Origin: Alphaproteobacteria bacterium
GTDB lineage: Bacteria > Pseudomonadota > Alphaproteobacteria > SHVZ01
DNA: 64,000 bases
Direction of reading: 5' to 3'
Assembly (NCBI GenBank): GCA_041906305.1
Contig: JAYRJL010000009.1
Coordinates: forward strand, 102,927 to 166,926
Below are positions 1,528 through 64,000 of this stretch, piece after piece. Both the position numbers and the translations under genes were made by a program. Every line of letters starts with the position of its first letter. The stretch's first letter is position 1. Below the pieces are notes generated by a model that did no database searches, was not told the DNA's origin, and worked only from the letters and a program-made list of their open reading frames with translations.

Positions 1528-1528
1528 A

Positions 1529-11375: not shown

Positions 11376-12424
11376 GGCGCGAGAACGACGCGTCCGACGA
11401 TGCGCCCGGCCTTCAGGTCTTCGAGCGCCTGGTTGACCTCGTCGAGCTTGCGGCGACCGACGGGCATCGGCTTGACCTTGCCGGCGCGGACGAGTGCCAT
11501 CAGCTCGCGCATCTCGCCCAGGGTTCCGACGTAGGAGCCGCGGATCGTCATCGCGCGCATGGGCAGCGTCACCAGCGGCAGCGTCACGTCGCCGCCGAAC
11601 AGGCCGACGATGACGTACGTGCCCCCCTTGTTGAGCGCATCGATGCCGAGACGCGCGGTCGCCGAGGCGCCGACGAAGTCGACGGCGGCGGCGAGCCTCC
11701 CGCCGGCAAGATCCTTGAGGCGCTTCGCCGCATCAGGACCGGAAGAGTTGAGCGTCTTCGTGATGCCCATCTTCTTCGCCGCTTCGAGCTTGGCGTCGTC
11801 GATGTCGACCGCGATGATCGGCGCGTCGATCATGCCGGGCGCGATCGCGACGCCGGCGAGGCCGACGCCGCCGAGCCCGATCAGCGCGACATGATCGCCG
11901 GCGATCAGCTTCGGAATTTTCTTCAGCGCGCCATAGGCGGTGACGCCAGAGCACGCGTAGGTCGCGGCGAGCCCGGGGTCGACCCCGGTGATGTCGACGA
12001 GATACTTTTCGTCGGGAACCAGCACGTGATCCGAATAGCCGCCATGGCTGAACACGCCGAGCGAGCGCATCTGCAGGCAGAGATTCTCCTCGCCGGCCAG
12101 GCACGGGGCGCACTTCCCGCAGCCGATCCACGGAAATGCCATCCGCATGTCGCCGACCTTGGCGGTCTTGGCCTCCGGGCCGACCGCGACGACCTCGCCG
12201 ACGACCTCGTGGCCCATGGTCAGCGGCAGGTTGATGCCGCGATCGCCGAGGGTCAGGCGCTTGCCGCCGCCGAGATCGTAGTAGCCGTCCCAGATGTGAA
12301 GGTCGCTGTGGCAGACGCCGGCCGCGACTGTCTTGAGCAGGACCTGGCGCCCGGTCGGCGCAGGCGTCTCATGCGCGACCCGTGCGAGCGGCTTCGAGAA
12401 TTCGGTGACCTGGTAGCTGAGCAT
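11372..12424 (-). CDS. Zinc-dependent alcohol dehydrogenase (MDR family)
   Basis: GVCHSDLHIWDG...GHEVVGEVVAVG...CGKCAPCLAGEENLC are the catalytic and structural Zn motifs. GLGGVGLAGV is the NAD-binding motif. Its stop overlaps the nnr start in an ATGA quartet. Confidence 0.85.
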   Translation of the reverse strand: MLSYQVTEFSKPLARVAHETPAPTGRQVLLKTVAAGVCHSDLHIWDGYYDLGGGKRLTLGDRGINLPLTMGHEVVGEVVAVGPEAKTAKVGDMRMAFPWIGCGKCAPCLAGEENLCLQMRSLGVFSHGGYSDHVLVPDEKYLVDITGVDPGLAATYACSGVTAYGALKKIPKLIAGDHVALIGLGGVGLAGVAIAPGMIDAPIIAVDIDDAKLEAAKKMGITKTLNSSGPDAAKRLKDLAGGRLAAAVDFVGASATARLGIDALNKGGTYVIVGLFGGDVTLPLVTLPMRAMTIRGSYVGTLGEMRELMALVRAGKVKPMPVGRRKLDEVNQALEDLKAGRIVGRVVLAP

Positions 12425-49690: not shown

Positions 49691-50470
49691 TCAGCGTCCC
49701 TTGAAGACGGGCTTCGCCTTTGCGAGGAAGGCGTCGCGACCGGCGCGATAGTCCTCCGTGCCGAAGCAGGCGAAGCCTTCGTCCGCCTCATCCGACGAGA
49801 GCGGCCGAGCCTCGGCCAGGCGCCGGGCGAATTTCTTGTGCCAGCGGTTGACGAGCGGGGCGCCGTCGGCGATCCGCCGGGCGGTCGCGGTGCCCTCGCC
49901 CTCCACCTTATCGTCGGCGACCACGCGGTTGACCAGGCGCTTCTGCAGAGCCTCCTCGGCCCCGAAGACGCGCGCCTCGTAGAGGATCTCGAGCGCGACC
50001 GACTCCCCGCAAAGGCGGATCAGCGCCTCGATCTCCGGATAGGCCATCACCAGGCCGAGCCGGTTGATCGGCACGCCGAAGCGCGACGAGGTTCCGCAGA
50101 TCCGCATGTCGCACATCAAGGCGATCTCGAGCCCGCCGCCGACGCAGATGCCCTTGATCACCGCGAGGGTCGGATGCCGGCAGGAAGCGACCGCGCCCAT
50201 CGTGTCGTGCATCACGTGCCCGTAGGCGGTGGCCTGGGCGACGTCGGCCCGCTCGGTCGAGAACTCGGCGATGTCGGCGCCCGGCGAGAAGGCGCGGTCG
50301 CCCGATCCGGTCAGCACGACGCAGCCGACGTCGTCATCACGGTCCAGGGCGGCCATCGCCTCGCCGATCCCCCGCCACATCGCCTTGTTGAGCGCGTTCA
50401 GCTTCTCCGGCCGGTTGAGCCGGACGGTGGCGATTCGGTCCTTCTTCTCGACCTCGACGACCTCGGCCAT
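49691..50470 (-). CDS. Enoyl-CoA hydratase/isomerase family protein
   Basis: RIATVRLNRPEKLNAL...VVLTGSGDRAFSPGADI...CVGGGLEIALMCDMRI are the crotonase motifs. Start ATG at 50470 with a GAGGGAGAGG RBS. Confidence 0.85.
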   Translation of the reverse strand: MAEVVEVEKKDRIATVRLNRPEKLNALNKAMWRGIGEAMAALDRDDDVGCVVLTGSGDRAFSPGADIAEFSTERADVAQATAYGHVMHDTMGAVASCRHPTLAVIKGICVGGGLEIALMCDMRICGTSSRFGVPINRLGLVMAYPEIEALIRLCGESVALEILYEARVFGAEEALQKRLVNRVVADDKVEGEGTATARRIADGAPLVNRWHKKFARRLAEARPLSSDEADEGFACFGTEDYRAGRDAFLAKAKPVFKGR

Positions 50471-50565
50471 GCGCCTCTCCCTCGGATGCGCCGACACTAG
50501 CGGACCGGGAGGCGAAACGCGCGAAACTCTGCTAAACGACGGGCGCCAGAACGGAGGGGAAGACG

Positions 50566-51225
50566 ATGGCCGACACCGCGACCGCCCAGCTGACCGCCGA
50601 CATCCTGCTGGAGATCCAGGCGGTCCATATCCGCCCCGAGGAACCCTTCACCTTCACCTCCGGCCGGAAATCGCCGGTCTATGTCGACTGCCGGAAGATC
50701 ATCTCGTTCCCGCGCGCCCGCGCGACGCTGATGAACCTGGCGATACAGACCGTCTGCAAGGAAGCCGGGCACGAGGCCTTCGACGTGGTCGCGGGCGGCG
50801 AGACCGCGGGCATCCCCTTCGCCGCCTGGGTCTCCGAGCGCCTGATGCTGCCGATGACCTACATCCGGAAGAAGCCGAAGGGCTTTGGCCGCAACGCGCA
50901 GATCGAAGGCGACTTCAAGGACGGCGCGCGCATGCTGCTGGTCGAGGACCTGGCCTCGGAGGGCGGCTCCAAGCACCTCTTCCTCGATGCGATCAACGCC
51001 GCCGGCGCCACCTGCAAGCACATCTTCGTCATCTTCAACTACGGCACCTTCCCCGAAGGCATCGCCGCGCTCGAAGCCCGCGGCGTGAAGCTGCACTACC
51101 TCGCGACCTGGGCCGACGTGCTCGTCGCTGCCGAGCGCAAGGGCTACACCAAGGACCAGCTCGACCAGGTCCGCACCTTCCTCGCCGACCCCGACGGCTG
51201 GGCCGCCAGGCTCAAGAGCGCCTGA
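50566..51225 (+). CDS. pyrE: Orotate phosphoribosyltransferase (long alphaproteobacterial form)
   Basis: SGRKSPVYVDCRKIISFPRARATLMNLA...AGGETAGIPFAAWVSERLMLPMTYIRKKPKGFGRNAQIEG...MLLVEDLASEGGS is the PRPP-binding motif. Confidence 0.85.
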   Translation: MADTATAQLTADILLEIQAVHIRPEEPFTFTSGRKSPVYVDCRKIISFPRARATLMNLAIQTVCKEAGHEAFDVVAGGETAGIPFAAWVSERLMLPMTYIRKKPKGFGRNAQIEGDFKDGARMLLVEDLASEGGSKHLFLDAINAAGATCKHIFVIFNYGTFPEGIAALEARGVKLHYLATWADVLVAAERKGYTKDQLDQVRTFLADPDGWAARLKSA

Positions 51226-51237
51226 GGACCCGCGCCC

Positions 51238-51999
51238 ATGCCGCGTTTCGCCGCCAACCTCTCGACCATGTTCGGCGAGCACGACTGGCTCGCGCGCCCG
51301 CTGGCGGCCAAGCGCTGCGGCTTCGCGGCGGTCGAGATCCAGTCGCCCTACGAGTTCGAGCTCGACGCCTGGGTCCGCGCCAAGAACGAAGCGCAAGTCG
51401 AGTGGCTGATGATCAACCTGCCGGCGGGCAAGCCGGGCGAGCGCGGCATGGCGTGCCTGCCCGGACGCGAGGCCGACTTCCGTGCCGGCGTCGCCGAGTG
51501 TCGTCGCTACGGCGAGGCGCTCGGGATTACGCAGGTGAACATGCCGGCCGGCGTGCCGCCCAAGGACGCCGAGCGTGCCCGCATCGAGGACACCTTGATC
51601 GCGAACTACCGCTATGCCGCCGAAGAGCTGGGCAAGGCCGGGATCAAGGCGCTGGTCGAGCCGCTCAACGACCGCGACATCCCAGGCACCTTCGTCACCC
51701 GCGCCGACCAGGCGCTCGACCTGATCGACCGCGCCGGCCACGCCAATCTCGGCCTGCTGCACGACCTCTATCACGCCCAGATCATGGTCGGCGACCTGCT
51801 CCGGAACCTGGAAGAGCTGATGCCGCGCATCGGCCACATCCAGTTTGCCGACCCGCCCAAGCGGACCGAGCCTGGAACCGGAGAGCTCAACTGGTCCGTC
51901 CTGTTCGCCGCGATCGACCGACTGGGGTACCGCGGCTGGGTTTCGGCCGAGTATTTTCCGACCGGAAAGACCGCCGACAGCCTCACGTGGATGCGTTGA
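51238..51999 (+). CDS. hyi: Hydroxypyruvate isomerase-like sugar-phosphate isomerase/epimerase (xylose isomerase-like TIM barrel)
   Basis: MPRFAANLSTMFGE...AVEIQSPYEF...VEPLN...HDLYHAQIM...GHIQFAD matches the Hyi/OtnI pattern. Confidence 0.75.
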   Translation: MPRFAANLSTMFGEHDWLARPLAAKRCGFAAVEIQSPYEFELDAWVRAKNEAQVEWLMINLPAGKPGERGMACLPGREADFRAGVAECRRYGEALGITQVNMPAGVPPKDAERARIEDTLIANYRYAAEELGKAGIKALVEPLNDRDIPGTFVTRADQALDLIDRAGHANLGLLHDLYHAQIMVGDLLRNLEELMPRIGHIQFADPPKRTEPGTGELNWSVLFAAIDRLGYRGWVSAEYFPTGKTADSLTWMR

Positions 52000-52047
52000 T
52001 CCAGGCCTAGGGCGACCCTTCCGCCCCTGCCACCGGACTGCCATAAT

Positions 52048-52073
52048 CTCCCGCAGCAGAAGCACTACGGGAG
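52048..52073 (+). promoter_or_regulatory. Hairpin that sequesters the Shine-Dalgarno of the SBP gene
   Basis: ctcccg cagcagaagcacta cgggag. The 3' arm cgGGAGG is the RBS, 6 nt upstream of ATG 52081. Confidence 0.3.
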
Positions 52074-52080
52074 GTTTTCA

Positions 52081-53745
52081 ATGCGCTATCTGGCAACAGG
52101 CATTCTTGCGGCGTCGCTGGCGCTTTCGGGCACCGCCTTCGCCCAGCAGAAGGCCGGCGAGCTGACGGTCGCCATGACCCAGTTCCCCGCGACCCTCAAC
52201 CCGCACATCGACTCGATGCTGGCGAAGACGATCGTGCTGCACATGACGCAGCGCCCGATCACCACCTTCGACGAGAAGTGGCAGGCGATCTGCCTGCTCT
52301 GCACCGAGATGCCGACGATCGAGAACGGCAAGGCGGTGCCGGTCGATATGCCCGACGGCAAGAAGGGCGTGAAGGTCACCTACACGATCCATCCGAACGC
52401 CAAGTGGGGCGACGGCACGCCGGTCACCACCAAGGACGTGCTGTTCACCTACGAGGTCGGCAAGAACCCGGAGACGGGCGTCGCCGACATGGAGATGTTC
52501 CGCGAGATCGTCGGGATCGAGGCGAAGGACGACAAGACCTTCACCGTGACCAAGGACAAGCTGAAGTTCACCTACAACCAGATGAACAATTTCCGGCTCA
52601 TCCCGGCTCACATCGACGGCGCGAACTTCGATCCCAAGCAGGCGGCCGAGTACAAGAAGAAGACCGCCTTCGACACCACGCCGACCAACCCCGGCCTGTT
52701 CTTCGGCCCCTACAAGATCACCGAGCTGGTGACCTCGAGCCACGTCTCGTTCGAGCCGAACCCGACCTGGTACGGCGAGCCCGCCAAGTTCAAGCGCATC
52801 ACCTTCAAGGTGATCGAGAACACCGCGGCGATGGAAGCCAACCTGCTTTCGGGCTCGGTCGACTACATCATGGGCGAGCTCGGCGTCACCATCGACCAGG
52901 CGATCGCGTTCCAGAAGCGCCAGGCCGACAAGTACAACTATGACTTCAAGCCGGGCCTCGTTTACGAGCACATCGACCTCAACCTCGAGAACCCGCTGCT
53001 CAAGGACAAGCGCGTCCGCCAGGCCCTGCTCTACGCCATCAACCGCGACCAGATCGTGCAGCAGCTGTTCGAGGGCAAGCAGCCGGTCGCCCACACCAAC
53101 GTCAACCCGCTCGACTGGATCTACGACAAGGACGTGAAGTCCTATCGCGCCGACCAGAAGAAGGCGGCCGAGCTGCTGGACGCCGCCGGCTTCAACGTCA
53201 TGAAGGACGGCTACCGCCATAACGCCGCCGGCGACCGGCTCCGCTTCGAGCTGATGACGACGGCCGGCAACCGCTCGCGCGAGCTGGTTCAGCAGGTGCT
53301 GCAGAGCCAGTGGAAGTCGGTCGGCGTCGAGATCGTGATCAAGAACGAGCCGGCCCGCGTCTTCTTCGGCGAGACCACGAAGGAGCGGAAGTACACCGGC
53401 ATGGCGCTGTTCGCCTGGATCTCCTCGCCGGAGAACGTGCCGCTGACCATCCTCCACTCCAACCACATCCCGACCAAGGAGAACAACTGGGCCGGGCAGA
53501 ACTACACCGCCTACAAGAACCCGGAGATGGACAAGCTCCTCGAGGCGATCGAGGTCGAGCTCGACAAGGACAAGCGCCGCGCGCTCTGGACCAAGTTCCA
53601 GGCGATCTACGCCGAGGACCTGCCGGTGCTGCCGCTGTTCTTCCGCGCCGAGCCCTTCATCGTTCCGAAGTGGCTGAAGGGCATCGTGCCGACGGGCCAC
53701 CAGTACGGCACCACGATGTGGTCGCAGAACTGGGCCGCCAACTGA
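52081..53745 (+). CDS. ABC transporter substrate-binding protein, family 5 (peptide/nickel/opine type; DppA/OppA-like)
   Basis: Signal peptide MRYLATGILAASLALSGTAFAQ, then a family-5 SBP architecture of 554 aa. Confidence 0.9.
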   Translation: MRYLATGILAASLALSGTAFAQQKAGELTVAMTQFPATLNPHIDSMLAKTIVLHMTQRPITTFDEKWQAICLLCTEMPTIENGKAVPVDMPDGKKGVKVTYTIHPNAKWGDGTPVTTKDVLFTYEVGKNPETGVADMEMFREIVGIEAKDDKTFTVTKDKLKFTYNQMNNFRLIPAHIDGANFDPKQAAEYKKKTAFDTTPTNPGLFFGPYKITELVTSSHVSFEPNPTWYGEPAKFKRITFKVIENTAAMEANLLSGSVDYIMGELGVTIDQAIAFQKRQADKYNYDFKPGLVYEHIDLNLENPLLKDKRVRQALLYAINRDQIVQQLFEGKQPVAHTNVNPLDWIYDKDVKSYRADQKKAAELLDAAGFNVMKDGYRHNAAGDRLRFELMTTAGNRSRELVQQVLQSQWKSVGVEIVIKNEPARVFFGETTKERKYTGMALFAWISSPENVPLTILHSNHIPTKENNWAGQNYTAYKNPEMDKLLEAIEVELDKDKRRALWTKFQAIYAEDLPVLPLFFRAEPFIVPKWLKGIVPTGHQYGTTMWSQNWAAN

Positions 53746-53751
53746 CGTGAC

Positions 53752-53790
53752 GAAGGCCGGCGGGGCTCGCTCCGCCGGCCTTCTCTCCTT
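53752..53790 (+). terminator. Intergenic attenuator/terminator hairpin between the SBP and permease genes
   Basis: gaaggccggcgg ggctcgct ccgccggccttc is a 12-bp stem followed by TCTCCTT. Confidence 0.45.
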
Positions 53791-53805
53791 CCGGCCGACG
53801 GTCCC

Positions 53806-54762
53806 ATGACCCGCTTCCTCTCCGTCCGTTTCCTCCAGGCGATGATCGTCGTCCTGGTCATGTCGTTCGTCGTCTATGGCCTGATCGGCCTGATGCCGGG
53901 CGACCCGATCGACATCATGCTGGCGGGCGACCCCAACATGACCGCCGCCGACGCGGCGCGGCTGCGCGCCCTCTACGGCGTCGACAAGCCGATCACCGAG
54001 CGCTACCTCGCCTGGCTGATGAGTGCGATCGGCGGCGATTTCGGGTTCTCGCGCCAGCACAACCAGCCGGTGATGCACATTCTGCTGCCGCGCCTGCTGA
54101 ACACGCTCTACCTGATGATCTTCGCCTTCCTGATCTCGGTGTCGGTGGCGATCCCGGCCGGCGTCTATGCCGCCCGCAATCCCCGCTCCTGGGTCGACCA
54201 GGCGATCAACCTCTTCTGCTTTGCCGGCATCTCGGTCCCGGTGTTCTTCCTGGCGCTGCTTCTGATCATCCTGTTCGCGGTCCAGCTCGGCGTCCTGCCG
54301 GCGAGCGGCATGCGCACGGTCGGCGGTCCGCCCTCCTTCCTCGACCAGCTCCGCTACATGGCGCTGCCGGTCCTGACGCTGACCATCGCCAACGTGGCGC
54401 AGGTCACGCGCTACGTGCGCTCGGGCATGATCGAGGTGCTTCGCGAGGACTACATCCGGACGGCCCGCGCCAAGGGCGCCGACGAGAACCGCGTGGTCTG
54501 GAAGCACGCGCTCCGCAACGCGCTGATCCCGACCGTGACGATCATGGCGCTCGAATGCGGCACGCTGCTCTCGGGCGCTCTGATCACCGAGACGATGTTC
54601 GCCTATCTCGGCATGGGCAAGCTGATCTTCGACTCGATCCTCGCCAACGACTTCAACGTGGCGCTGGTGGGGCTGCTCTTCGCCTGCAGCGTCACGCTGA
54701 TCCTGAACCTGGTCGCCGACCTGCTCTACGCGGCGCTCGATCCGCGCATCTCCTACCGGTGA
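53806..54762 (+). CDS. ABC transporter permease (DppB/OppB-like)
   Basis: MTRFLSVRFLQAMIVVLVMSFVVYGLIGLMPGDP plus the EAA region ARAKGADENRVVWKHALRNALIPTV. Confidence 0.9.
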   Translation: MTRFLSVRFLQAMIVVLVMSFVVYGLIGLMPGDPIDIMLAGDPNMTAADAARLRALYGVDKPITERYLAWLMSAIGGDFGFSRQHNQPVMHILLPRLLNTLYLMIFAFLISVSVAIPAGVYAARNPRSWVDQAINLFCFAGISVPVFFLALLLIILFAVQLGVLPASGMRTVGGPPSFLDQLRYMALPVLTLTIANVAQVTRYVRSGMIEVLREDYIRTARAKGADENRVVWKHALRNALIPTVTIMALECGTLLSGALITETMFAYLGMGKLIFDSILANDFNVALVGLLFACSVTLILNLVADLLYAALDPRISYR

Positions 54763-54770
54763 GCCGCCAG

Positions 54771-55721
54771 ATGGGTTCGCTCGTCACCACCCAGATCCGC
54801 ACCGAGGACACGGCCCTGCCGCCGCCGACGCGGCCGGCGGTCCTCATCTGGCGCCGCTTCCGCCGCCACAAGGGCGCGCTGATCGGCGCCGGCATCCTGA
54901 TCTTCCTCGCCGTCCTCGCCATTCTTGCGCCCTGGATCGCCGACTGGCGCGGCCAGAACGCCGAGGAGGTCAACCTCTTCAACCGCTTCCAGCCCGCGTC
55001 GGTCGAGCACCCGCTCGGCACCGACGACCTCGGCCGCGACCTGCTGCTGCGCCTGATCTATGGCGGCCGGATCTCGCTGTTCGTCGGCCTCGTGACGGCG
55101 ATCCTGACCGCCTCGATCGGGACCACGATCGGACTGATCTCCGGCTGGTATGGCGGCCGGGTCGACGCCTTCCTGATGCGCTTCTGCGACGGCTGGATCG
55201 CGCTGCCGCTGCTGCCGGTGCTGATCGTGCTCGCCGCGGTCGACCCGACCAAGGTCGGGCTCCCGGCCTCGATCGCCAAGTCGCCCGACTTGAGCCTCTA
55301 CCGCATCGTGCTGATCATCGCGCTGGTGACCTGGACCACCTCCGCCCGCCTCGTGCGCGGCGTGACGCTGACCTTGAAGACCCGCGACTTCGTCCAGGCC
55401 GCGGTGGCGCAGGGCGCGTCCACCGCCCGCATCCTCTTCGTCCACATCCTGCCGAACGCGCTCTCGCCGATCCTGGTCGCCGCCACCTTGGCCAGCGGTA
55501 ACATCATCCTGCTGGAGTCGACGCTGAGCTTCCTCGGTCTCGGCATCCAGCCGCCGGTCGCGAGCTGGGGCAACATCCTGACCAACGCGCAGGAGATCAT
55601 CTGGTCCCAGCCGATGCAGGCCATCTACCCGGGCGTGCTGATCTTCACGACCGTGATCTCGCTCAACTTCGTCGGCGACGGCCTCCAGGACGCGTTCGAT
55701 CCGCGGACCGAGGGACGGTAG
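54771..55721 (+). CDS. ABC transporter permease (DppC/OppC-like)
   Basis: HPLGTDDLGRDLLLRLIYGGRISL is the DppC N-terminal motif. EAA region AAVAQGASTARILFVHILPNALSPI. Start at ATG 54771 (M73 of the track ORF). Confidence 0.9.
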   Translation: MGSLVTTQIRTEDTALPPPTRPAVLIWRRFRRHKGALIGAGILIFLAVLAILAPWIADWRGQNAEEVNLFNRFQPASVEHPLGTDDLGRDLLLRLIYGGRISLFVGLVTAILTASIGTTIGLISGWYGGRVDAFLMRFCDGWIALPLLPVLIVLAAVDPTKVGLPASIAKSPDLSLYRIVLIIALVTWTTSARLVRGVTLTLKTRDFVQAAVAQGASTARILFVHILPNALSPILVAATLASGNIILLESTLSFLGLGIQPPVASWGNILTNAQEIIWSQPMQAIYPGVLIFTTVISLNFVGDGLQDAFDPRTEGR

Positions 55722-55773
55722 TCGCTCCCACTATCTATTGCGAATTCAAAGGTCCGGGGACTCGGAGCATGCG

Positions 55774-56157
55774 TCAAGAACGCGCCGGTGATGGCCCTCT
55801 TAGGACGGCATCGCCTGAACGAAAGATTCGAAGCGAGATCCGAGCCTCGATGCCGACCGTCCAAAATTCAATCTCGCCGAGGGCTTCGAGTGTCGCTTCG
55901 GTCCTCTCTCGGTCGATCTCCCAACAATTGGCCGCAGATAGATAGCGCACCCATGGATTCTCGTGCTCTAGACTCGGCAGGAGAGTCTGCAGAGCGGAGC
56001 GAGACCAAAGTTCATTGGCAATCGCGTATTGCTCTCGGAATTTCCGCGTATACGGTCGGTTCAGGCCGGCTTCCCCGTCTTCGCCCATCAAGATCGCCAG
56101 CTCGACAAAGCGTTCGACGAGTTGCTCGATTGACCGACCAGTAAGGTCTTTTGTCAT
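55774..56157 (-). CDS. Putative immunity protein (127 aa, helical/HEAT-like) cognate to the upstream toxin
   Basis: ATGA start/stop overlap with the toxin gene. Low GC (about 55-58% versus about 68%). Small acidic cytoplasmic protein. The family assignment is tentative (it resembles DUF2019-type immunity proteins, from memory). Confidence 0.5.
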   Translation of the reverse strand: MTKDLTGRSIEQLVERFVELAILMGEDGEAGLNRPYTRKFREQYAIANELWSRSALQTLLPSLEHENPWVRYLSAANCWEIDRERTEATLEALGEIEFWTVGIEARISLRIFRSGDAVLRGPSPARS

Positions 56158-57392
56158 TTGAGTGCCTTCACTTCACGAAGTACGTCCAGCCCCACGCGCA
56201 TGTGCTCCGAGAATGACCGGCCAACCAGCCATTCTCGGTATGACAGTCCTCCAAGCTCTGGGCGTGGTTTCGTCATGGCATAGACGACGTCCCAATGCTT
56301 GCCTCGAGGTATGCGGACGATGTTCGCAGTATTGTTGATCATTTTTTTGGAGAAGCCACTACCCTGCTCGACGACGTGATGCCAGTCGCGGAAAGGTCCG
56401 GCCGACTTGTATTTTCTCTTGAACGCTTCGAACGAGTTGAAATCCCGGAAGTCTTTGTCGGCGATCATCTCCTCCCACTCCTTAGCCGACTCCCAATAGC
56501 CTTCGAACTCGGGGAAGATCCGGTTGATCCGATTCACCCATTCTCGCGCGAAATCGTTGATCTCCATCCAAATCGGCGAGTTGCGTCCAGGGAATGATCC
56601 GCGGCGCTTCATCTCTTCGGTGAGCCAAGCCGCTAACCAGGCAAGAGCCTCCCGCTTCGTCCTGGGAAACCTAGGAGGCTTTTCATCGCCGCCAATCAGG
56701 ACCAAGGGCGCGTTTTCGCCGCTCGCGTCGGTCAGATCCTTCCGCGCGTCGTCGAAGATCTCGACTAGACGCTGTTGTTCCTCGGTGAGCGGCTCATCAC
56801 CTGTGTCCAGCTCTTCATCAGATCCGTCGGTAGCGCCGTCCTCCGGGATCGCAACGTTGCCGACGGCACCGTCTCTTCCCGCACCATTCCCGCCGGTCCA
56901 CTGCCCGCCGTCGGGATGGCCGCGCGGCACACGCGGCTGGTCGGGGTCGTACTTGCTTTCGAGACCAGCGCGCGCGAGCCAGGCGTCGATGTCGACGCGG
57001 GGGTTGCCGCGGTTGTGCGCGGCCCCCCAGGCGAGGTAGCGGAGGCCGGCGTCGCGGAAGCGCGACTTGAACTCTGGCGGCGGGAACGCGATGGCGTCGG
57101 CGATCTCGGCTGCGCGCCTGCGATCGCCGTCGGCGAGCGCGTCGGCGGCGAGCTGCAGCAGCGGCGCGCGGTCGCCGAGAGCGAAGTCGCGTCCGTAGAC
57201 CTCGCGCATCGCGTCTTCGAGTACGCGCAGATCCATCAGCCACGGCACCGGCTTGCCGCGGACGCCGGCGCGGATGCCGCCGACCGGCCAGTGCGAGAGA
57301 CGGATCAGGTCGCCGTCGATCCAACAGCGCTCAGGTCCGCTCCGGGCAAAGTCCGGGCGGTCGCGCGACACCCATCGGGTGTGCCCGTGCAT
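56154..57392 (-). CDS. Putative polymorphic toxin. The N-terminal region has genome-typical GC, then a Gly/Asp-rich linker, then a low-GC C-terminal domain with a W-H-H motif (WHH-type HNH/EndoVII-fold nuclease candidate).
   Basis: C-terminus ...GPFRDWHHVVEQGSGFSKKMINNTANIVRIPRGKHWDVVYAM: WHH, then about 25 aa, then a conserved His, which fits the HNH beta-beta-alpha-metal layout. The linker is DPDQPRVPRGHPDGGQWTGGNGAGRDG...DGSDEELDTGDEPLTEEQQ. GC drops from about 66% to about 53% at the linker and stays low through the immunity gene. A GGAG RBS lies 7 nt before the ATG. Confidence 0.55.
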   Translation of the reverse strand: MHGHTRWVSRDRPDFARSGPERCWIDGDLIRLSHWPVGGIRAGVRGKPVPWLMDLRVLEDAMREVYGRDFALGDRAPLLQLAADALADGDRRRAAEIADAIAFPPPEFKSRFRDAGLRYLAWGAAHNRGNPRVDIDAWLARAGLESKYDPDQPRVPRGHPDGGQWTGGNGAGRDGAVGNVAIPEDGATDGSDEELDTGDEPLTEEQQRLVEIFDDARKDLTDASGENAPLVLIGGDEKPPRFPRTKREALAWLAAWLTEEMKRRGSFPGRNSPIWMEINDFAREWVNRINRIFPEFEGYWESAKEWEEMIADKDFRDFNSFEAFKRKYKSAGPFRDWHHVVEQGSGFSKKMINNTANIVRIPRGKHWDVVYAMTKPRPELGGLSYREWLVGRSFSEHMRVGLDVLREVKALK

Positions 57393-57583
57393 CGGCCAAC
57401 TCCATGTCGGAAAAAGAAAAGGACCCGCCGCCCGGTCCGGGCGCAGGTCCTCTCAGTAGCGCTCAACCTGTCAAAAACGCGGATTTCCGTCAACTAAATT
57501 TGCGTATAAAAATCCTCATCACGAATTGTGTCGGCCCCCTTCAAGGGCTTAGGCCCTGGCGCCGGTAACGCTATGATCCGGCC

Positions 57584-57946
57584 GTGACCCGTGCCCTCCT
57601 GCTCATCGGAAGCCTGCTGCTGGCGACCCTTCCGGCCTTCCCGGCCGAGGCGCAGATCGGCCCGGCTACGCGCGGGGCGTGCTTCCTGGTGCGCAACATG
57701 GCGCCGTTCGGCCTCTCGGGCCGCGTCATCATGAAGTCGCGCGAGCGCTACACCTTTGTGCTGCAGAAGGGCCAGAGCCGCCGCGCCTGCATCGAAGGCG
57801 AGATGTACCCGAACGACAAGGTCGAGCTCGCGATCACCGTGTTCGGGATGCCGCTCTTCGTCTGCTACACGAAGGTCGACCAGCCGATCCAGCTCTACGC
57901 CGTGCGCCAGGAAGAGGGCTACAAGTACTACGCCGACTGCCGCTGA
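57584..57946 (+). CDS. Hypothetical small secreted protein (120 aa; signal peptide; 4 Cys)
   Basis: GTG start; MTRALLLIGSLLLATLPAFPAEAQ is signal-peptide-like. Its stop abuts the MFS gene stop. Confidence 0.45.
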   Translation: MTRALLLIGSLLLATLPAFPAEAQIGPATRGACFLVRNMAPFGLSGRVIMKSRERYTFVLQKGQSRRACIEGEMYPNDKVELAITVFGMPLFVCYTKVDQPIQLYAVRQEEGYKYYADCR

Positions 57947-59176
57947 CTAGCGCTGGCGCAACACGGTCGGCGAGATCAGCGCGAGCGCCGCGGCGAGGCC
58001 GCCCACCGCACCGATCCACAGCGTCGTCGAAAAGCCGATGGCATCGGCGAGCGGCCCCGCGACCAGCGCGCCCAAGGGCATCGCCAGGCCCGTCGCGACA
58101 TGAAAGGTGGCGCTCGTGCGCCCCAGCACCTCTATCGGCAGCACGCGCTGGCGCAGGCTGAGTGCATGGATCAGGTAGATGCTGAGGAAGGCGTCGCCGA
58201 TCAGCTGGTGCGCGACGAGGCTCGGGATCGCGAGCGGGCCCGCGACCTCCGAAAGCGGGATCAGCAGCGCGGCGGCGCTGCCGAGAGTCAGCGTCGCGAG
58301 CAGGGTTGGACCGAGCCCGAACCGAGACGCCACGCGCTCCGCCATCAGCGCCCCGAGGAACGAGCCGATGCCGCCGACGCTGATGACCAGCCCCACCGCG
58401 AGCGGCGAGAGCGCGAGACGCTCGAGCGCCAGGATCATGTAGAGCGTATTGAAGAAGCCGCCGAACAGCATCATCAGCGTCTCGGCCGCGAGCAATCGCG
58501 CGACCACCGGCTCATGCAGGCAAGCGTGGAATCCCGCCTTCACGTCGGCAACGAGGCCGTTGCGCTCCTCCGTTGCCGCGGGTGCCTCGGCCGCACGAAT
58601 CCGGCTCAGCATCGACGCCGACCACAGGTAAGTGACCGCATCGACGATCACCGCGAAGGACGCCGTCATCGCCTGGACCAGGATGCCGGCGAGGCCCGGA
58701 CCGACGCTCTCGGCGATGGAGTCCGTCGCCTCGAGCTTGGCGTTGCCCTCGACCAGCTGGTCCTTGCCGACCAGAGTCGGCAGGTAGGCGTTGTCGGCGA
58801 TGCGGAACAGCGCGGTCGCCGCGCCGATGCAGGCCGCGACCAGGTAGAGCTGCGGCATGGAGAGGAAGCCGCTCCAAGCGGCGAACGGGATCGTCAGGAT
58901 GAGGGCGGCGCGCAGCAGGTCGGTCGCGACCAGCAGGGGCCGCTTAGGGCTTCGGTCGACCGGGCCGCCGGCAACGAGGCCGACGACCACGCCCGGCGCC
59001 ACGCCCAGCGCCGACAGGATCGCGATCTCGGTCGGCGTGGCGCCGATGGTCAGGATCGCGATCATCGGCAGTGCCGTGCGCGTGATCCGGCTGCCGAGCG
59101 CGCTCAACGACTGCGCCGCCCACAGCTTCAGAAAGTCGGCATGACGCCAGAGCCCGCCCGAGGGCCAAATCCGCAT
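57947..59176 (-). CDS. MFS transporter
   Basis: 409 aa with 12 predicted TM segments. MFS motif-A-like GSRITRTALPM. Typical MFS loop pattern. Confidence 0.8.
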   Translation of the reverse strand: MRIWPSGGLWRHADFLKLWAAQSLSALGSRITRTALPMIAILTIGATPTEIAILSALGVAPGVVVGLVAGGPVDRSPKRPLLVATDLLRAALILTIPFAAWSGFLSMPQLYLVAACIGAATALFRIADNAYLPTLVGKDQLVEGNAKLEATDSIAESVGPGLAGILVQAMTASFAVIVDAVTYLWSASMLSRIRAAEAPAATEERNGLVADVKAGFHACLHEPVVARLLAAETLMMLFGGFFNTLYMILALERLALSPLAVGLVISVGGIGSFLGALMAERVASRFGLGPTLLATLTLGSAAALLIPLSEVAGPLAIPSLVAHQLIGDAFLSIYLIHALSLRQRVLPIEVLGRTSATFHVATGLAMPLGALVAGPLADAIGFSTTLWIGAVGGLAAALALISPTVLRQR

Positions 59177-59232
59177 GATCGCCCCCGGAGATCGCGCGCG
59201 CTCAATCGCCGATCACGCGTCCCGATGCAAGC

Positions 59233-60156
59233 CTAGAAGGGCCGCGCCGGCGCCAGTTCCTTTTCCCTCGCGTCGAGGTCGGCGCGTCTCGGCAATCCCG
59301 CCTGCGCGCCGGCCGTGGTGCAGGCGAGCGCGCCCGCGACGGACGCGCGCCTGAGCGCCGTCGGCAGGTTGCGGCCCTCGTCGAGGCTGGCGGCAAGCAC
59401 GCCGACGAAGGCATCCCCGGCGCCGACCGTGTCGACGACCTTCACCTGCAGCGCGTCGATCCGGAACGCGCCGTCCATCGCCACGGCGAGCGCGCCCTCA
59501 GGACCGAGCGTGACGATCACCGTCCCGGCATAGCGCCGCACGATCGCGCTCGCGATCGCCGCCGGCGTGCGCTCGGCAAGTCCCAGGTGGCCCGCGAGCG
59601 CGACCGCCTCGTGCTCGTTGACGACGAGGATACCGGTATCGGCGATCAGACCGTGCGGCGGCGTCAGCGCCGGGGCCAGGTTGAGCATCACGCGTGCGCC
59701 CGACTTGCGCGCGCGCGCGGCGAGGCGCGCGGTCTCGGTCGGCGAGATCTCCATCTGCAGAACGACGGTGGTGGCCGGTCCGAGCCTGGCGTCGGGCACG
59801 TCGGCGGCGCGCGCTTCCAGGTTGGCGCCGCCGGCGCCCAGGATCAGGTTCTCGCCCCTGGCGTCGATCGCGATGAAGGCGGCCCCCGTCGGCTGCCCCG
59901 ATGCGGCGATGCCGGCGACGTCGATGCCCTCGGCGGCGAGGCCCTGCTTCAGCGACTGGCCGAAGGGATCGGATCCGATCCGCCCGACCATCGCGACCTT
60001 GGCCCCGGCGCGCGCTGCGGCGACCGCCTGGTTGGCGCCCTTGCCGCCGGCGGCGGTGCGATAGGTCGACGACAGGGCCGTCTCGCCCGGCTTCGGCAGC
60101 ACCGGCACGTTGACGAAGAAGTCGGCGTTGATCGATCCGAAGACGAGGACGGTCAT
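59233..60156 (-). CDS. rbsK: Ribokinase/PfkB family carbohydrate kinase
   Basis: MTVLVFGSINADFFVNVPVLPKPGET...GGKGANQAVAAA...DTVGAGDAFVGVLAASL (anion hole plus DTxGAGD) are ribokinase signatures. Confidence 0.85.
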   Translation of the reverse strand: MTVLVFGSINADFFVNVPVLPKPGETALSSTYRTAAGGKGANQAVAAARAGAKVAMVGRIGSDPFGQSLKQGLAAEGIDVAGIAASGQPTGAAFIAIDARGENLILGAGGANLEARAADVPDARLGPATTVVLQMEISPTETARLAARARKSGARVMLNLAPALTPPHGLIADTGILVVNEHEAVALAGHLGLAERTPAAIASAIVRRYAGTVIVTLGPEGALAVAMDGAFRIDALQVKVVDTVGAGDAFVGVLAASLDEGRNLPTALRRASVAGALACTTAGAQAGLPRRADLDAREKELAPARPF

Positions 60157-60344: not shown

Positions 60345-61379
60345 CTACGCCGCCGCCGTCAGCGGCCCGGCGGGGAGCCGGCCTTCCTCGACCGCGTGAC
60401 AGGCGGTGATCGAGCCGGTGTCGTTCGGCTTCGGCTCCGGCCGCTCGGCCTTGCAGCGATCGTTGGCGAAAGGACAGCGCGGATGGAAGGCGCAGCCAGT
60501 CGGCGGGTTGATCGGGTTCGGCACCTCGCCCGCGACCGGCGTGCGCTGGCGGCCGGTCATGTCGAGGTCGGGAATCGTGTCCAGCAGCATCCGCGTATAG
60601 GGATGTCTCGGCAGCGCGAACACCGTCTGCTTCGGCCCGATCTCGGCGAGGCGGCCGAGATACATGACGCCGACGCGGTCGGCGATGTGGCGGACGACCG
60701 CGAGGTTGTGGCTGATGAAGAGGTAGGTCAGGCCCAGCTTTCGCTGCAGGTCCTTCATCAGGTTCAGGATCTGCGCCTGCACCGAGACGTCGAGCGCCGA
60801 GGTCGGCTCGTCGCAGACCAGGAATTCGGGCTGGCTGGAGAGCGCACGCGCGATCGAGATGCGCTGGCGCTGTCCGCCGGAGAATTCGTGCGGGTACTTC
60901 TCGCCGTCGACCGGGGAAAGCCCGACCTGGCGCAGCAGCTGGCCGACGCGCTCCTGGATCGCCGCCTCGTCGTCGATGAGCTTGAAGGCGCGGATCGGCT
61001 CGGAGATGATCGCAGACACGCGCCAGCGCGGATTGAGGCTGGCATACGGATCCTGGAAGATCATCTGCAGGCGCCGGCGGATTGGCGCCATCTCGGCGCG
61101 GCCGCCGAGGCCCGCCATGTCGACCCCGTCGAAGACGATCGAGCCCTTCGACGGCTTGTAGAGGCCGACGACGAGGCGCGCGACCGTCGACTTGCCGCAG
61201 CCGGACTCGCCGACCAGCGCCAGCGTCTCGCCCCTCTTGATCTCGAAGTCGATGCCGTCGACCGCACGCAGGATCTGGCGCGGCGTGCCGTCGAGCACGC
61301 GGTTGAGCCAGGGCAGCGACACGTCGAAGTACCGGGCGAGCCCGGCGACCTTCACCAGGGTGGGCTTCGTCTCAGGCAT
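60345..61379 (-). CDS. Oligopeptide/dipeptide ABC transporter ATP-binding protein (DppF/OppF-like)
   Basis: Walker A GESGCGKST, signature FSGGQRQRISIARAL, Walker [13 protein letters not shown] and a C-terminal oligopeptide-ATPase extension (GCAFHPRCP). Confidence 0.9.
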   Translation of the reverse strand: MPETKPTLVKVAGLARYFDVSLPWLNRVLDGTPRQILRAVDGIDFEIKRGETLALVGESGCGKSTVARLVVGLYKPSKGSIVFDGVDMAGLGGRAEMAPIRRRLQMIFQDPYASLNPRWRVSAIISEPIRAFKLIDDEAAIQERVGQLLRQVGLSPVDGEKYPHEFSGGQRQRISIARALSSQPEFLVCDEPTSALDVSVQAQILNLMKDLQRKLGLTYLFISHNLAVVRHIADRVGVMYLGRLAEIGPKQTVFALPRHPYTRMLLDTIPDLDMTGRQRTPVAGEVPNPINPPTGCAFHPRCPFANDRCKAERPEPKPNDTGSITACHAVEEGRLPAGPLTAAA

Positions 61380-62337
61380 TCGCGTAAAGCCAGCAGGAGG
61401 CGCGGGTGACGCCGGTGTCCATGAGCTCCGGCCGCTCGACCCGGCAGCGGTCGAAGGTATGCGGGCAGCGCGGGTTGAAGGCGCATCCCGGCGGGATCTC
61501 GGTCAGGCGCGGCATCGAGCCCTCGATCTGCTCGAGGCGCTCCTTGTCGTCGTTGATCTTGGGGATCGATCCCATCAGCCCGTGGCTGTAGGGATGCTTC
61601 GCTTCCTTGATCACGGCGCGCACCGGGCCGATCTCGGCGATGCGGCCGGCATACATCACGGCGACCCGGTCGGCGGTCTCGGCGATCACGCCCATGTCGT
61701 GGGTGATCAGCATGATCGCGGTGCCGTGCTCGCGGCAGAGCCGCTTGAGAAGCGCGATGATCTGCGCCTGGATCGAGACGTCGAGCGCGGTGGTCGGCTC
61801 GTCGGCGATCACCAGCTTCGGGTTGACGCAGAGCGCCAGCGCGATGACGACGCGCTGGCGCATGCCGCCCGAGAACTGGTGCGGGTAGTGGTCGACGCGG
61901 CGCTCGGCAGCGGGGATACCGACTTCCTGCAGCAGCTCGATCGCGCGCGCACGGGCTCGCGTCGGCGTCATGTCGGTATGCGTCTGGATGGTCTCGATCA
62001 GCTGGCGGCCGACCGAATAGAGCGGGTTGAGGCTGGTCAGCGGATCCTGGAACACCGCGCCGATCTGCTTGCCGCGGATCTTGCGCATCTCCTCGTAGGG
62101 AAGATTGTCGATGCGCCGGCCCATCAGACGGATCTCGCCGGCGGCGATACGCCCCGGCGGCTCGAGAAGACCGATCACCGCGGTGCCGGTCAGCGACTTG
62201 CCGGCGCCGGACTCGCCGACCACGCCCAGCACCTCGCCCTCGCCGATCTGGAACGAGACGTCGTCCACGGCGAGCAGCGTGCCGCGCCTGGTCGGGAACT
62301 CGATCCGGAGATGCTCGACTTCGAGAAGGGCGGCCAT
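61372..62337 (-). CDS. Oligopeptide/dipeptide ABC transporter ATP-binding protein (DppD/OppD-like)
   Basis: Walker A GESGAGKSLT, signature FSGGMRQRVVIALAL, Walker B LVIADEPTTALD and a C-terminal GCAFNPRCP. Confidence 0.9.
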   Translation of the reverse strand: MAALLEVEHLRIEFPTRRGTLLAVDDVSFQIGEGEVLGVVGESGAGKSLTGTAVIGLLEPPGRIAAGEIRLMGRRIDNLPYEEMRKIRGKQIGAVFQDPLTSLNPLYSVGRQLIETIQTHTDMTPTRARARAIELLQEVGIPAAERRVDHYPHQFSGGMRQRVVIALALCVNPKLVIADEPTTALDVSIQAQIIALLKRLCREHGTAIMLITHDMGVIAETADRVAVMYAGRIAEIGPVRAVIKEAKHPYSHGLMGSIPKINDDKERLEQIEGSMPRLTEIPPGCAFNPRCPHTFDRCRVERPELMDTGVTRASCWLYANA

Positions 62338-63269
62338 CAGCGGAGCTTCGGGTTGAGGGCGTCGCGCAGCCAGTCACCCAGGAGGTTGACCGACAGCACG
62401 AGGATGACGAGGAACAGGCCGGGGAAGATCGCCATCCACCACTCGCCCGAGAACAGGAAGTTGTTGCCGATGCGGATCAGCGTGCCGAGCGACGGCTGGG
62501 TCGGCGGCACGCCGACGCCGAGGAAGCTCAGCGTCGACTCCGTCAGCACCGCGATGCCGAGGCCGAGCGTCGCGATCACCAGCACCGGGCCCATCACGTT
62601 GGGCAGCACGTGGCGGAACATGATCAGGATCGGGTGCAGGCCGATGACGCGAGCGGCCTGGACGTATTCCTTGTTCTTCTCGACCAGGGTCAGGCCGCGC
62701 ACGGTGCGCGCGTACTGGATCCAGGTCGAGAAGCCGATCGCCATGACGATGACCGAGACCGCCGCCTTGTCATGCAGGTCGCGCGGCAGGATGCCGCGGG
62801 CGATGCCGTCGATCAGCAGCACGATCAGGATCGCGGGGAAGCTCAGCTTCACGTCGGCGACGCGCATGATCACCGCGTCGGTGACGCCGCCGACATAGCC
62901 TGCGATCAATCCGAGCGCCACGCCCATGGTCAGCGCGAGGGCGACCGAGGCAAAGCCCACGATCAGCGAGACGCGGGCGCCGAGGATGATGGTCGAGAAC
63001 ACGTCGCGCCCCTGGTCGTCGGTGCCGAGCAGATAGGAGATCTTGCCCCCCTCCACCCAGGCCGGCGGCAGGAAGGCGTCCATCAGGCTGAGGCTCGCCA
63101 CGTCGTAGGTGTTGTGCGGAACGATCAGCGGCGCCAGCACGGCGGCGACGATGAACAGCATGGTCAGCGCGAAGGCGATGATCACCGTCGGCGAGCGCTT
63201 GAAGCTGTAGAAGACGTCGGACGCCAGGAAGCGGCGGACGAGATCCTTGAGATTGTGCCAGATGGACAT
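62337..63269 (-). CDS. ABC transporter permease (DppC/OppC-like)
   Basis: LLGTDDQGRDVFSTIILGARVSL. EAA region AARVIGLHPILIMFRHVLPNVMGPV. Confidence 0.9.
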   Translation of the reverse strand: MSIWHNLKDLVRRFLASDVFYSFKRSPTVIIAFALTMLFIVAAVLAPLIVPHNTYDVASLSLMDAFLPPAWVEGGKISYLLGTDDQGRDVFSTIILGARVSLIVGFASVALALTMGVALGLIAGYVGGVTDAVIMRVADVKLSFPAILIVLLIDGIARGILPRDLHDKAAVSVIVMAIGFSTWIQYARTVRGLTLVEKNKEYVQAARVIGLHPILIMFRHVLPNVMGPVLVIATLGLGIAVLTESTLSFLGVGVPPTQPSLGTLIRIGNNFLFSGEWWMAIFPGLFLVILVLSVNLLGDWLRDALNPKLR

Positions 63270-63273
63270 GGGA

Positions 63274-64000
63274 TCAGTGCGCCGAGACCGACCGCTCGAC
63301 CCGTAGCCTCGGATCGACGGCGAAGTAGAGCAGGTCGACGACGAGGTTGATGAGCACGAAGAACAGCGCGACCAGCACCAGGTAGGTGCTCATCACCGGG
63401 ATGTCGACGAACTGGATCGCGGTGATGAACAGGAAGCCCATCCCCGGCCACTGGAACACCGTCTCGGTGATGATGGCGAAGGCGATGAGGCCGCCGATCT
63501 GCAGCCCGGCGATGGTGATGACCGGCACCAGCGTGTTCTTGAGCGCATGGCCGAAATTGACCGCGCGGTTGGTGAGGCCCCGCGCGCGCGCGAACTTGAT
63601 GTAGTCGGCACGCAGCACCTCGAGCATCTCCGAGCGCACCAGCCGCATGATCAGCGTCGTCTGGAACAGTCCCAGCGTGATCGACGGCAGGATGAGCGCC
63701 TTTAGGCCGCTCTTGGTGAGGAACCCGGTCGACCAGAATCCCAAATTGACCACGTCGCCGCGGCCGAACGACGGAAGCCAGCCCAGCAGCACGGCGAAGA
63801 TCAGGATCAGCAGGATGCCGATCAGGAAGGTCGGCAGCGACACGCCGATCAGCGACACCGTCAGCATGAAGCGGCTGAGCGCCCCGTGGCGATGGAGCCC
63901 GGTGTAGACGCCGGCGGGCACGCCGATGAACAGCGCGAACAGCGCGGCGACGATCACCAGCTCCAGCGTCGCCGGCAGGCGCTCGGCGATGATCTGGGCG
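63274..64000 (-). CDS. ABC transporter permease (DppB/OppB-like), 5'-partial (N-terminus lies beyond the window end)
   Basis: EAA region ARARGLTNRAVNFGHALKNTLVPV. The frame remains open to position 64000 (..AQIIAERLPATLEL-). Confidence 0.85.
   Translation of the reverse strand, partial: AQIIAERLPATLELVIVAALFALFIGVPAGVYTGLHRHGALSRFMLTVSLIGVSLPTFLIGILLILIFAVLLGWLPSFGRGDVVNLGFWSTGFLTKSGLKALILPSITLGLFQTTLIMRLVRSEMLEVLRADYIKFARARGLTNRAVNFGHALKNTLVPVITIAGLQIGGLIAFAIITETVFQWPGMGFLFITAIQFVDIPVMSTYLVLVALFFVLINLVVDLLYFAVDPRLRVERSVSAH

Follow-up and report, generated by a model that had tools for sequence, protein, structure and literature searches.

A pair of overlapping genes in a 64-kb stretch of alphaproteobacterial DNA (contig JAYRJL010000009.1) is described here. 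The whole stretch is referred to as the window, all positions are those of the window, and L and P numbers are the names of compared loci and proteins. With a probability of about three in four, the two genes constitute a chromosomal polymorphic-toxin/immunity module. The first gene (56154..57392, minus strand) encodes a toxin of 412 aa and the second (55774..56157, minus strand) an immunity protein of 127 aa. The two open reading frames (ORFs) overlap by 4 nt, ATGA, exactly as the first-pass annotation had read them. The toxin consists of a conserved head, a junction motif, a linker with a helical segment, and a C-terminal toxin domain (C-domain). The central observation is that everything behind the junction, together with the immunity gene, is exchanged as a block between near-identical chromosomes.

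Exchange of toxin and immunity genes as one cassette

The exchangeable cassette occupies 55728..56890 on the minus strand and comprises toxin aa 168-412, the immunity gene, and 46 bp of downstream sequence. Its limits were obtained by comparison with the syntenic locus L001, whose DNA is 95.7% identical to the window over 59558..56891 and 97.5% identical over 55727..50001 (blastn). Across 55728..56890 itself, no nucleotide similarity to L001 was found. The left breakpoint is codon 167, directly after QPRVPRGHPDGGQWT (...GGQWTG), and the right breakpoint lies 46 bp beyond the stop codon of the immunity gene. In the corresponding place, L001 has a different cassette of 1,633 bp, which contains its own C-terminal half and two DUF2019 genes; its immunity protein is 21% identical to that of the window. 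DNA identity between L004 and the window ends at 56896, while L007 is colinear with the window throughout, at 92.5%. L001, L004, and L007 preserve the synteny of the locus while differing in their cassettes. Because the L001 arrangement was found again on the independent Logan contigs L002 and L003, an artefact in the assembly of a metagenome-assembled genome (MAG) is unlikely. The locus is a clean, base-resolved example of toxin/immunity cassette exchange.

Comparison of 17 distinct modules leads to the same picture. The N-terminal part is the most conserved, with a mean identity of 0.76, against 0.43 in the C-domain and 0.35 in the immunity protein. C-domain identity rises with immunity protein identity (Spearman rho 0.71, p 6e-22), whereas N-terminal identity is significantly correlated with neither the C-domain (rho 0.04) nor the immunity protein (rho 0.11). 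Consequently, the immunity gene travels and evolves jointly with the C-terminal half of the toxin. Such unit-wise exchange behind a constant head is the defining behaviour of polymorphic toxins (PMC3482391). The proposal that C-terminal toxin and immunity modules are swapped while the N-terminal part is conserved, made in the first-pass annotation from the window alone, is thus strongly supported by both the L001 swap and the co-variation across homologous loci.

The base composition of the window follows the same boundary. GC content is 0.70-0.755 over 56800-57300, the 5' third of the toxin gene, compared with 0.52-0.575 over 55800-56700. Segment by segment, the codons for toxin aa 1-165 have a GC of 0.733 and a third-position GC (GC3) of 0.885, the rest of the toxin gene 0.574 and 0.677, and the immunity gene 0.562 and 0.586. 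The cassette, 55728..56890, is the lowest-GC kilobase of the window (GC 0.568; z = -3.9 against a background of 0.677 +/- 0.028). The break lies at toxin aa 167, just before a Gly/Asp-rich linker, where a drop had already been noticed. The low-GC part was earlier called foreign-like. Since the break occurs at the same place in 7 of the 7 homologous loci tested, it is a trait of the family and no evidence of recent acquisition here.

The module is found at three or more unrelated chromosomal sites, always as a two-gene unit, and some genomes carry 2-3 copies. The site of the window type, flanked by Opp, PfkB, and MFS genes, is occupied in L001, L002, L004, and L007; a second site, near MR_MLE and SBP_5 genes, is occupied in L008 and L012; and a third, between imuB and dnaE2, in L010. 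Additional "orphan" DUF2019 genes are present in L001, L010, L019, and L026. In L010 (3651..12833), the module and two extra genes with DUF2019 domains (221 and 380 aa) stand between an imuB-like gene (PF00817) and a dnaE2-like gene; this copy thus lies inside an error-prone polymerase cassette.

The toxin domain and its immunity protein

The C-domain corresponds to toxin aa 296-412 (56157..56507, minus strand) and is probably a nuclease of the HNH type, with a beta-beta-alpha-metal fold. H339, E342, N357, and H366 are invariant in the family, and H338 is nearly so. The two segments that first drew attention to the domain, FRDWHHVVEQ and RGKHWD, contain H339, E342, and H366, with N357 between them. 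Structure prediction with AlphaFold2 (AF2), based on an alignment of 47 sequences, gave predicted local distance difference test (pLDDT) scores of >=97 over the last 110 residues. In the model, strand beta1 ends in H338-H339, N357 stands just before beta2, and H366 is located in the first turn of the following helix. In the numbering of the model, strand E73-77 ends in H76/H77, N95 precedes strand E96-100, and H104 belongs to helix H101-112. The structure predicted for the C-terminus is accordingly the beta-beta-alpha fold that had been anticipated, with the two histidines closing beta1. As modelled, this arrangement, with its residues in HNH positions, is the one by which the His-Me finger superfamily is defined.

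Fold searches with the C-domain returned no significant nuclease match. The best profile matches in the Protein Data Bank (PDB) are all weak, namely three Cas8f-HNH entries (E 0.08-0.09) and the DNase of pyocin AP41 (E 0.95), with the HH, N, and H residues in register; the PDB matches as a whole are almost exclusively HNH nucleases. A broader profile built from 25 sequences (A5) again placed Cas8f-HNH at the top, without improvement (E 1.4). Taken together, the predicted fold and the pattern of conserved residues make an HNH-type nuclease the likely identity of the domain. The earlier assignment to the WHH type holds for the HH...N...H motif but not for the WHH label. The Pfam WHH model (PF14414) has no match at E<=1, and relatives have L, I, E, D, V, K, or Y in place of the tryptophan; membership in that family was therefore rejected.

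It is also conceivable that the C-domain is a toxin of a different chemistry, such as a small metal-dependent hydrolase with a zinc site formed by H339-x-x-E342...H366. The pattern HxxE...H supplies the zinc ligands of some peptidases, E342 is invariant, and the fold searches were without a significant nuclease hit. However, N357 is also invariant and precedes H366 by 9 residues, and the histidine pair at the end of a strand, followed by a second strand and a helix, reproduces the HNH layout. Moreover, not one of the weak PDB profile matches is a peptidase, and almost all are HNH nucleases aligned in register. A chemistry other than that of a nuclease is thus quite improbable.

The family to which the C-domain belongs is large. 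Its signature is YFDPPK.LEEL ... GY.xHHIVEQ ... N.VRIP..KH ... PR.YL ... GVLK. Among 1.84 billion representatives, a profile of the domain matched 2,393 clusters (formed at 50% identity) at E<=1e-3 and, at the stricter E<=1e-10, 1,745. In scans of about 25 relatives, no Pfam model covered the domain, and the family probably represents a new branch of HNH nucleases. The domain is common to other delivery scaffolds as well. In P0153, an Rhs-associated core domain precedes it (TIGR03696, with 54.3 bits for a cut-off of 32.5 and E 1.4e-14), and it also occurs in short toxins encoded in clusters of gene transfer agents (GTAs), which are discussed below.

The immunity gene, whose start codon overlaps the stop codon of the toxin gene, encodes an all-helical, HEAT-like protein. 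An HMM search assigns the protein to DUF2019 (PF09450) above the cut-off, with 27.2 bits against 23.3 and E 3.8e-6, over profile positions 1-102 of 105. It also has weak similarity to HEAT-type alphaRep repeats in the PDB. Genes downstream of the toxin at 6 other loci match DUF2019 with 17.8-43.4 bits. The association with the toxin is specific: a DUF2019-like gene follows the toxin in 25 of 27 cases with this C-domain, but in only 5 of 43 cases with other C-domains (Fisher p 6e-12), and the exceptions are truncated, frameshifted, or variant genes. Because a DUF2019 gene is present when, and only when, the HH-E-N-H domain is present, DUF2019 can be regarded as the immunity family that belongs to it, and a domain of unknown function thereby gains a function. 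In the literature searched, whose coverage is incomplete, DUF2019 is not named as an immunity family; the two papers that mention it do so outside this role.

The following mechanism is proposed for the module. The conserved head of 166 aa ends in QPRVPRGHPDGGQWT, and the recombining cassette behind it would supply the linker, the helical pre-toxin segment, and the C-domain of ~115 aa. The C-domain would cleave nucleic acid, with H339 acting as the general base; H338 and H366 would bind the metal, and N357 would brace the hairpin. In the producer cell, the DUF2019/HEAT-like protein would bind directly to the C-domain and block it. Homologous recombination could act in the conserved N-terminal coding region and leader at one end and in the downstream flank at the other, and so replace the C-domain and the immunity gene jointly. 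As a result of such joint replacement, closely related strains would carry mutually incompatible toxin/immunity specificities. Transcription would start from a conserved leader containing a terminator-like hairpin and may be governed by attenuation or antitermination. Directly observed are the order of the domains, the swap of the cassette, the co-variation of toxin and immunity protein, the place of the C-domain and the junction motif in a wider network of polymorphic toxins, and the conservation of the leader, whereas nuclease chemistry, immunity through direct binding, leader function, and export are deductions.

Conserved head, leader, and short relatives

The N-terminal domain of the toxin (aa 1-150; 56943..57392, minus strand) is conserved and is composed of four beta-strands followed by five helices. 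It is joined to the cassette by the junction motif KYDPDQPRVPRGHPDGGQWTG (aa 147-167; 56892..56954, minus strand), at which the left recombination breakpoint is located. Behind the motif, the Gly/Asp-rich linker and the helical pre-toxin region (aa 168-295; 56508..56891, minus strand) form the 5' part of the swapped cassette. A homologue search yielded ~42 full-length relatives with 37-83% identity, from MAGs of Alphaproteobacteria, mostly of freshwater origin; none of them has a Pfam domain. In their alignment, aa 1-166 are very conserved and end in QPRVPRGH.DGGQWT, the invariant junction residues being Q152, P153, R154, V155, R157, G158, H159, G162, G163, W165, and T166. The conserved part is therefore ~166 aa long, and not 190 aa as had been estimated at first. 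By contrast with this head, aa 168-295 vary in length, align poorly among homologues, and are predicted with low AF2 confidence. By eye, a segment within them, PP..P..R/K..A.WLA, resembles the PPEIPKERP-plus-helix stretch of the short relatives described below.

The earlier description of the N-terminal domain as unassigned was confirmed. The 412-aa toxin has no match in Pfam (hmmscan, E<=1), NCBIfam, PADLOC, PHROGs, or PDB sequences, and searches with aa 1-166 returned neither a family nor a fold. Neither Pfam nor NCBIfam has a model of the motif QPRVPxGxPDGGQW or of the N-terminal domain, and neither was encountered in the literature searched. The module combines a 166-aa domain, accompanied by a conserved leader of its own, with a junction motif that is common to toxins of at least five different C-terminal activities, and public domain libraries cover neither.

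The leader of the module, ~130 nt long (57393..57520, minus strand), is conserved upstream of the toxin in 18 loci whose upstream flanks are unrelated, and this conservation is a direct observation. All of its elements are on the minus strand. They include an inverted repeat, GAGGATTTTT (57508..57517) and AAATCCGC (57479..57486); two TTGAC(A/G) boxes (57488..57493 and 57469..57474); a GC-rich, terminator-like hairpin (57417..57454) ~25 nt before the start codon; a T-run (57411..57420) ending ~20 nt before it; and a GGAG ribosome-binding site (57400..57403). A single copy of the promoter-like element, invariably ahead of the toxin gene, is present in 29 of 29 loci examined and likewise in the window. 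It was seen nowhere else in those sequences and never in short-toxin loci, and a metagenome-wide scan for it returned two low-GC chance matches only. Scanning the leader for the sigma-70 consensus revealed no promoter. Possibly the TTGACA boxes are bound by a regulator, or the promoter departs from the canonical form.

For the hairpin, a centroid energy of -31 kcal/mol was calculated, and a terminator scan also detected it. In the alignment, 93.5% of its cells are paired, compared with <=59.5% in slid controls, and compensatory changes are present at 3 of its pairs. An Rfam search of the leader gave sub-threshold matches only, to ctRNA_p42d (22.7 bits against a gathering score of 50) and Bp1_684. 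Lying inside the leader, the hairpin suggests control by attenuation or antitermination. Since a terminator-like structure precedes the start codon, expression of the toxin is probably conditional. It was also noted that a UUCC in the leader could possibly pair with the GGAG Shine-Dalgarno sequence.

The N-terminal alignment was also used to scan GTDB, which yielded 17 loci with the full N-terminal domain and 53 loci with the motif region only, the latter mostly from Hyphomicrobiales and including cultured isolates. Most members of the C-domain family are likewise short proteins of 170-350 aa. Their order of elements is a helical N-terminus of 50-80 aa, the motif NFNPNQPRVP[RA]G.PDGGQW, a PPEIP..ERP linker, a helix, YFDPPK.LEEL, and the C-domain. 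Aa 107-166 of the window protein align with the helical N-terminal region of these short toxins (44% identity, E 2e-11). The C-termini encoded behind the motif include the HH-E-N-H domain as well as RNase_A_bac (PF18431) and Colicin_E5 (PF12106), both above the Pfam cut-off. A MafB19-like deaminase is matched weakly, DRAT-like domains are indicated weakly by partial matches in precomputed PF07357 annotation, and several further types are unassigned. A second toxin type was noticed behind the motif in L032, L033, L038, L066, L067, and L070. It has the pattern GCHTCG...DHQ.P...C..CS..QG (CxxC...DHQ...CxxC), which looks like a zinc-finger HNH domain, and it has no Pfam or NCBIfam match.

At 24 of the 53 GTDB loci, the short relatives are encoded inside RcGTA-like head-tail clusters, often with the C-domain and a DUF2019 gene. 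These clusters carry terminase, portal, S78 prohead protease, HK97-type capsid, connector, and tail tube genes, together with GTA-gp10 and DUF2460. The short toxin genes mostly separate the protease gene from the capsid gene or the portal gene from the protease gene: they follow the protease in L030, L036, L040, L043, L054, L059, L060, and L072, and the portal in L037, L044, L063, and L065. The same arrangement was found in about 20 of 30 IMG/VR contigs (loci L084-L112). In L058 (8621..10363), a portal protein (PF04860, E 6e-90) is fused C-terminally, via the motif, to an RNase_A_bac toxin, and the coordinates of L109 (3..1097) indicate an apparent second portal fusion. No description of toxin cassettes in GTA clusters was found in the literature searched, the coverage of which is incomplete. 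The positions of these relatives hint at delivery by GTAs or phage heads.

One further observation concerns L030. Downstream of an intact toxin/immunity pair, at 11651..11930 of this locus, a remnant of the 5' end of a toxin gene (MLCADPDIRRLMALRAVESGLLRLKWLAAATRFEIAM...) immediately precedes the capsid start codon, in frame with it, and has the look of a cassette fragment that was displaced. BLAST similarity between toxin and capsid ORFs at this locus had raised the idea that the N-terminus of the toxin mimics the delta (scaffold) domain of the capsid. Because the similarity is due to this remnant, which lies ahead of the true capsid start, the idea was rejected.

Genomic surroundings, delivery, and known systems

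The ORFs of >=480 aa in the window that have a Pfam match are all housekeeping genes (Lon, Ppk, Ppx, LptD, LptF/G, PepA, PurM-like, and a histidine kinase), and tblastn found no phage head genes. The earlier statement that the window contains no partner gene for delivery was thus checked for the large ORFs with a Pfam match, and not for small proteins such as PAAR and Hcp, for which no screen was made. The first-pass annotation had further placed the module between the two halves of one ABC transporter. However, the ATPase genes (60345..62337, minus strand) continue into permease-sized ORFs (62337..63957, minus strand), and the stretch 60345..63957 is colinear with a complete second Opp operon in L004. 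The module therefore splits no transporter. In addition, a 120-aa gene, an MFS gene, and a PfkB gene lie between the module and the ATPase genes. On the other side, 52081..55721 (plus strand) is an Opp-type operon that encodes a substrate-binding protein and two permeases, without adjoining ATPase genes of its own; the same ATPase-less arrangement is present in L001, L004, and L007.

The 120-aa ORF (57584..57946, plus strand) is divergent from the toxin gene, has a signal-peptide-like N-terminus, and matches no family. It is kept at this chromosomal site (L001, L004, and L007). Its product was considered as a secreted third component of the module and rejected: the ORF is absent from the other genomic contexts of the module and is consequently part of the flank. 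Far from the toxin, at a distance of ~53 kb, an ORF of 483 aa (1529..2980, minus strand) resembles, by eye only, a P4-type tyrosine integrase. It is adjoined by a 210-aa ORF without a Pfam match (region 895..2980, minus strand), and GC is ~0.60 over 500..2100; this region may be the edge of an integrated element.

How the toxin would leave the producer and reach a target cell can be addressed by comparing several explanations with the polymorphic-toxin reading. One of them is that the toxin acts as a soluble bacteriocin of the colicin/pyocin kind, released by lysis of some producers, with an N-terminal part that binds a receptor and directs import of a DNase. The layout of the module is compatible with this: a non-toxic N-terminal part precedes an HNH-like C-terminal DNase and an overlapping downstream immunity gene, there is neither a signal peptide nor a local set of secretion genes, and the DNase of pyocin AP41 is among the weak best matches. 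Conditional expression through the terminator leader would fit induction in a subpopulation, and the imuA-imuB-dnaE2 cassette that hosts one module (L010) is of a kind known to be damage-inducible. Nevertheless, no similarity to the receptor-binding or translocation domains of colicins or pyocins was detected, no lysis gene lies nearby, and the immunity protein is unrelated to the Im type. Conservation of the N-terminal part across lineages, at a mean of 76%, would also be unusual, as receptor-binding domains normally diversify. A bacteriocin is therefore rather unlikely.

A second explanation starts from the short relatives and regards the toxin as cargo of a phage-like particle, either a GTA or a prophage head, that is injected with the DNA into recipients. 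The N-terminal part and PRVPxGxPDGGQW would direct the toxin to the portal or procapsid, the prohead protease might cleave it, and stand-alone copies would be co-expressed with the particle genes via read-through of the leader terminator. The placement of short relatives in RcGTA-like clusters, the portal fusion in L058 and apparently that in L109, and the similarity of window aa 107-166 to the helical region of short toxins all argue in this direction, and head-packaged toxins have been proposed earlier for the MuF route (PMC3482391, PMC5576092). On the other hand, at the ~30 loci with the full N-terminal domain, including the window, no phage, GTA, or secretion gene was found within 8-10 kb. 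IMG/VR yielded no copy of the full N-terminal domain, a MuF domain is lacking, and the toxin-capsid similarity at L030 is a toxin remnant and not a capsid delta domain. For the window toxin, delivery as particle cargo is thus rather unlikely. A more general proposal is that toxins with the QPRVPxGxPDGGQW junction are cargo of GTAs or phage heads and that the N-terminal region together with the junction is a signal for head targeting or processing. Cassettes amid the portal, protease, and capsid genes, as well as portal fusions, would load nucleases, RNases, and deaminases into particles, and stand-alone modules, with their enlarged N-terminal domain and terminator-bearing leader, would be induced along with particle production by antitermination. 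This proposal is improbable. If the RcGTA-like link reflects delivery, the phage-head route would be extended to GTAs, which bears on what GTAs are for; if the toxins are indeed cargo, particles would kill or disable non-kin recipients without a matching DUF2019 protein, and gene transfer by GTAs would become kin-selective.

Alternatively, the toxin might be an orphan effector whose secretion system has its genes in another part of the genome, for instance a system of type VI (T6SS), type IV (T4SS), type I (T1SS), or another type, with the N-terminal domain serving for recognition or adaptor binding. Such effectors as a rule join a conserved N-terminal domain to a toxin that varies at the C-terminus, an Rhs core protein also bears the C-domain, and effector-immunity pairs located far from their apparatus are common (PMC3482391). 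However, no match to PAAR, VgrG, Hcp, an adaptor, or MIX/FIX-type or XVIPCD-type domains was obtained, none of these flanks the ~30 loci, and the relatives point to phage head modules instead. This, too, is improbable. Finally, an intracellular toxin-antitoxin or abortive-infection module that is never exported, with the N-terminal domain as sensor or regulator, would explain the overlapping two-gene unit, the missing export signal and secretion neighbours, and the several copies per genome at scattered housekeeping sites, but it is very improbable given that the toxin gene comes first, that the second protein has no DNA-binding domain (DUF2019/HEAT matches only), that Pfam and PADLOC contain no matching toxin-antitoxin family, and that the cassette swap, the orphan immunity genes, and the sharing of domains with Rhs-borne and portal-linked proteins are hallmarks of exported competition toxins.

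The interpretation as a polymorphic-toxin/immunity module can best be placed among known systems by its likenesses and differences. The polymorphic toxins catalogued by Zhang et al. (2012, PMC3482391), such as CdiA-CT/CdiI with the VENN motif and Rhs tips with DPxG, share with the module a constant head, a junction motif, and a variable toxin, as well as an immunity gene directly downstream, orphan immunity genes, and a low-GC cassette. They differ in that the module has no catalogued trafficking domain and no secretion genes nearby. MuF toxins have genes that adjoin the portal gene, and their packaging into heads has been proposed (Zhang et al. 2012, PMC3482391; Jamet et al. 2017, PMC5576092). 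The short relatives are alike in lying in a head-morphogenesis module near portal, protease, and capsid genes, with one fused to the portal. However, a Pfam scan of the window protein and its relatives found no MuF domain (PF04233/PF06152-type), and the clusters of the relatives are RcGTA-like (GTA-gp10, DUF2460). Moreover, the window copy stands outside any phage or GTA cluster, and neither it nor any other locus with the full N-terminal domain is located in a head or packaging module next to a portal gene.

Nuclease bacteriocins of the colicin E9 type and pyocin AP41 (PDB 4uhp) have the HH...N...(9 residues)...H pattern in register, a C-terminal nuclease, and an immunity gene directly downstream. 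The match is not significant (E 0.95), Pfam Colicin-DNase gives none, and the immunity protein is DUF2019/HEAT-like rather than a four-helix Im protein. The toxin families of the HNH/EndoVII group (WHH, PF14414; AHH, PF14412; LHH; GHH; SHH) resemble the C-domain in being small C-terminal domains with a conserved His-His pair and a dedicated immunity protein, whereas none of them matches it at E<=1, the residue before HH is not conserved in it, and it has a signature of its own. On the immunity side, Imm-HEAT (PMC3482391) is likewise an all-helical, HEAT-like protein encoded downstream of a toxin, and has been linked to Tox-REase-7 and Ntox34. Measured against these systems, the kind of module, a polymorphic toxin, is already known; what is new here is the variant, built from parts that public libraries do not cover.

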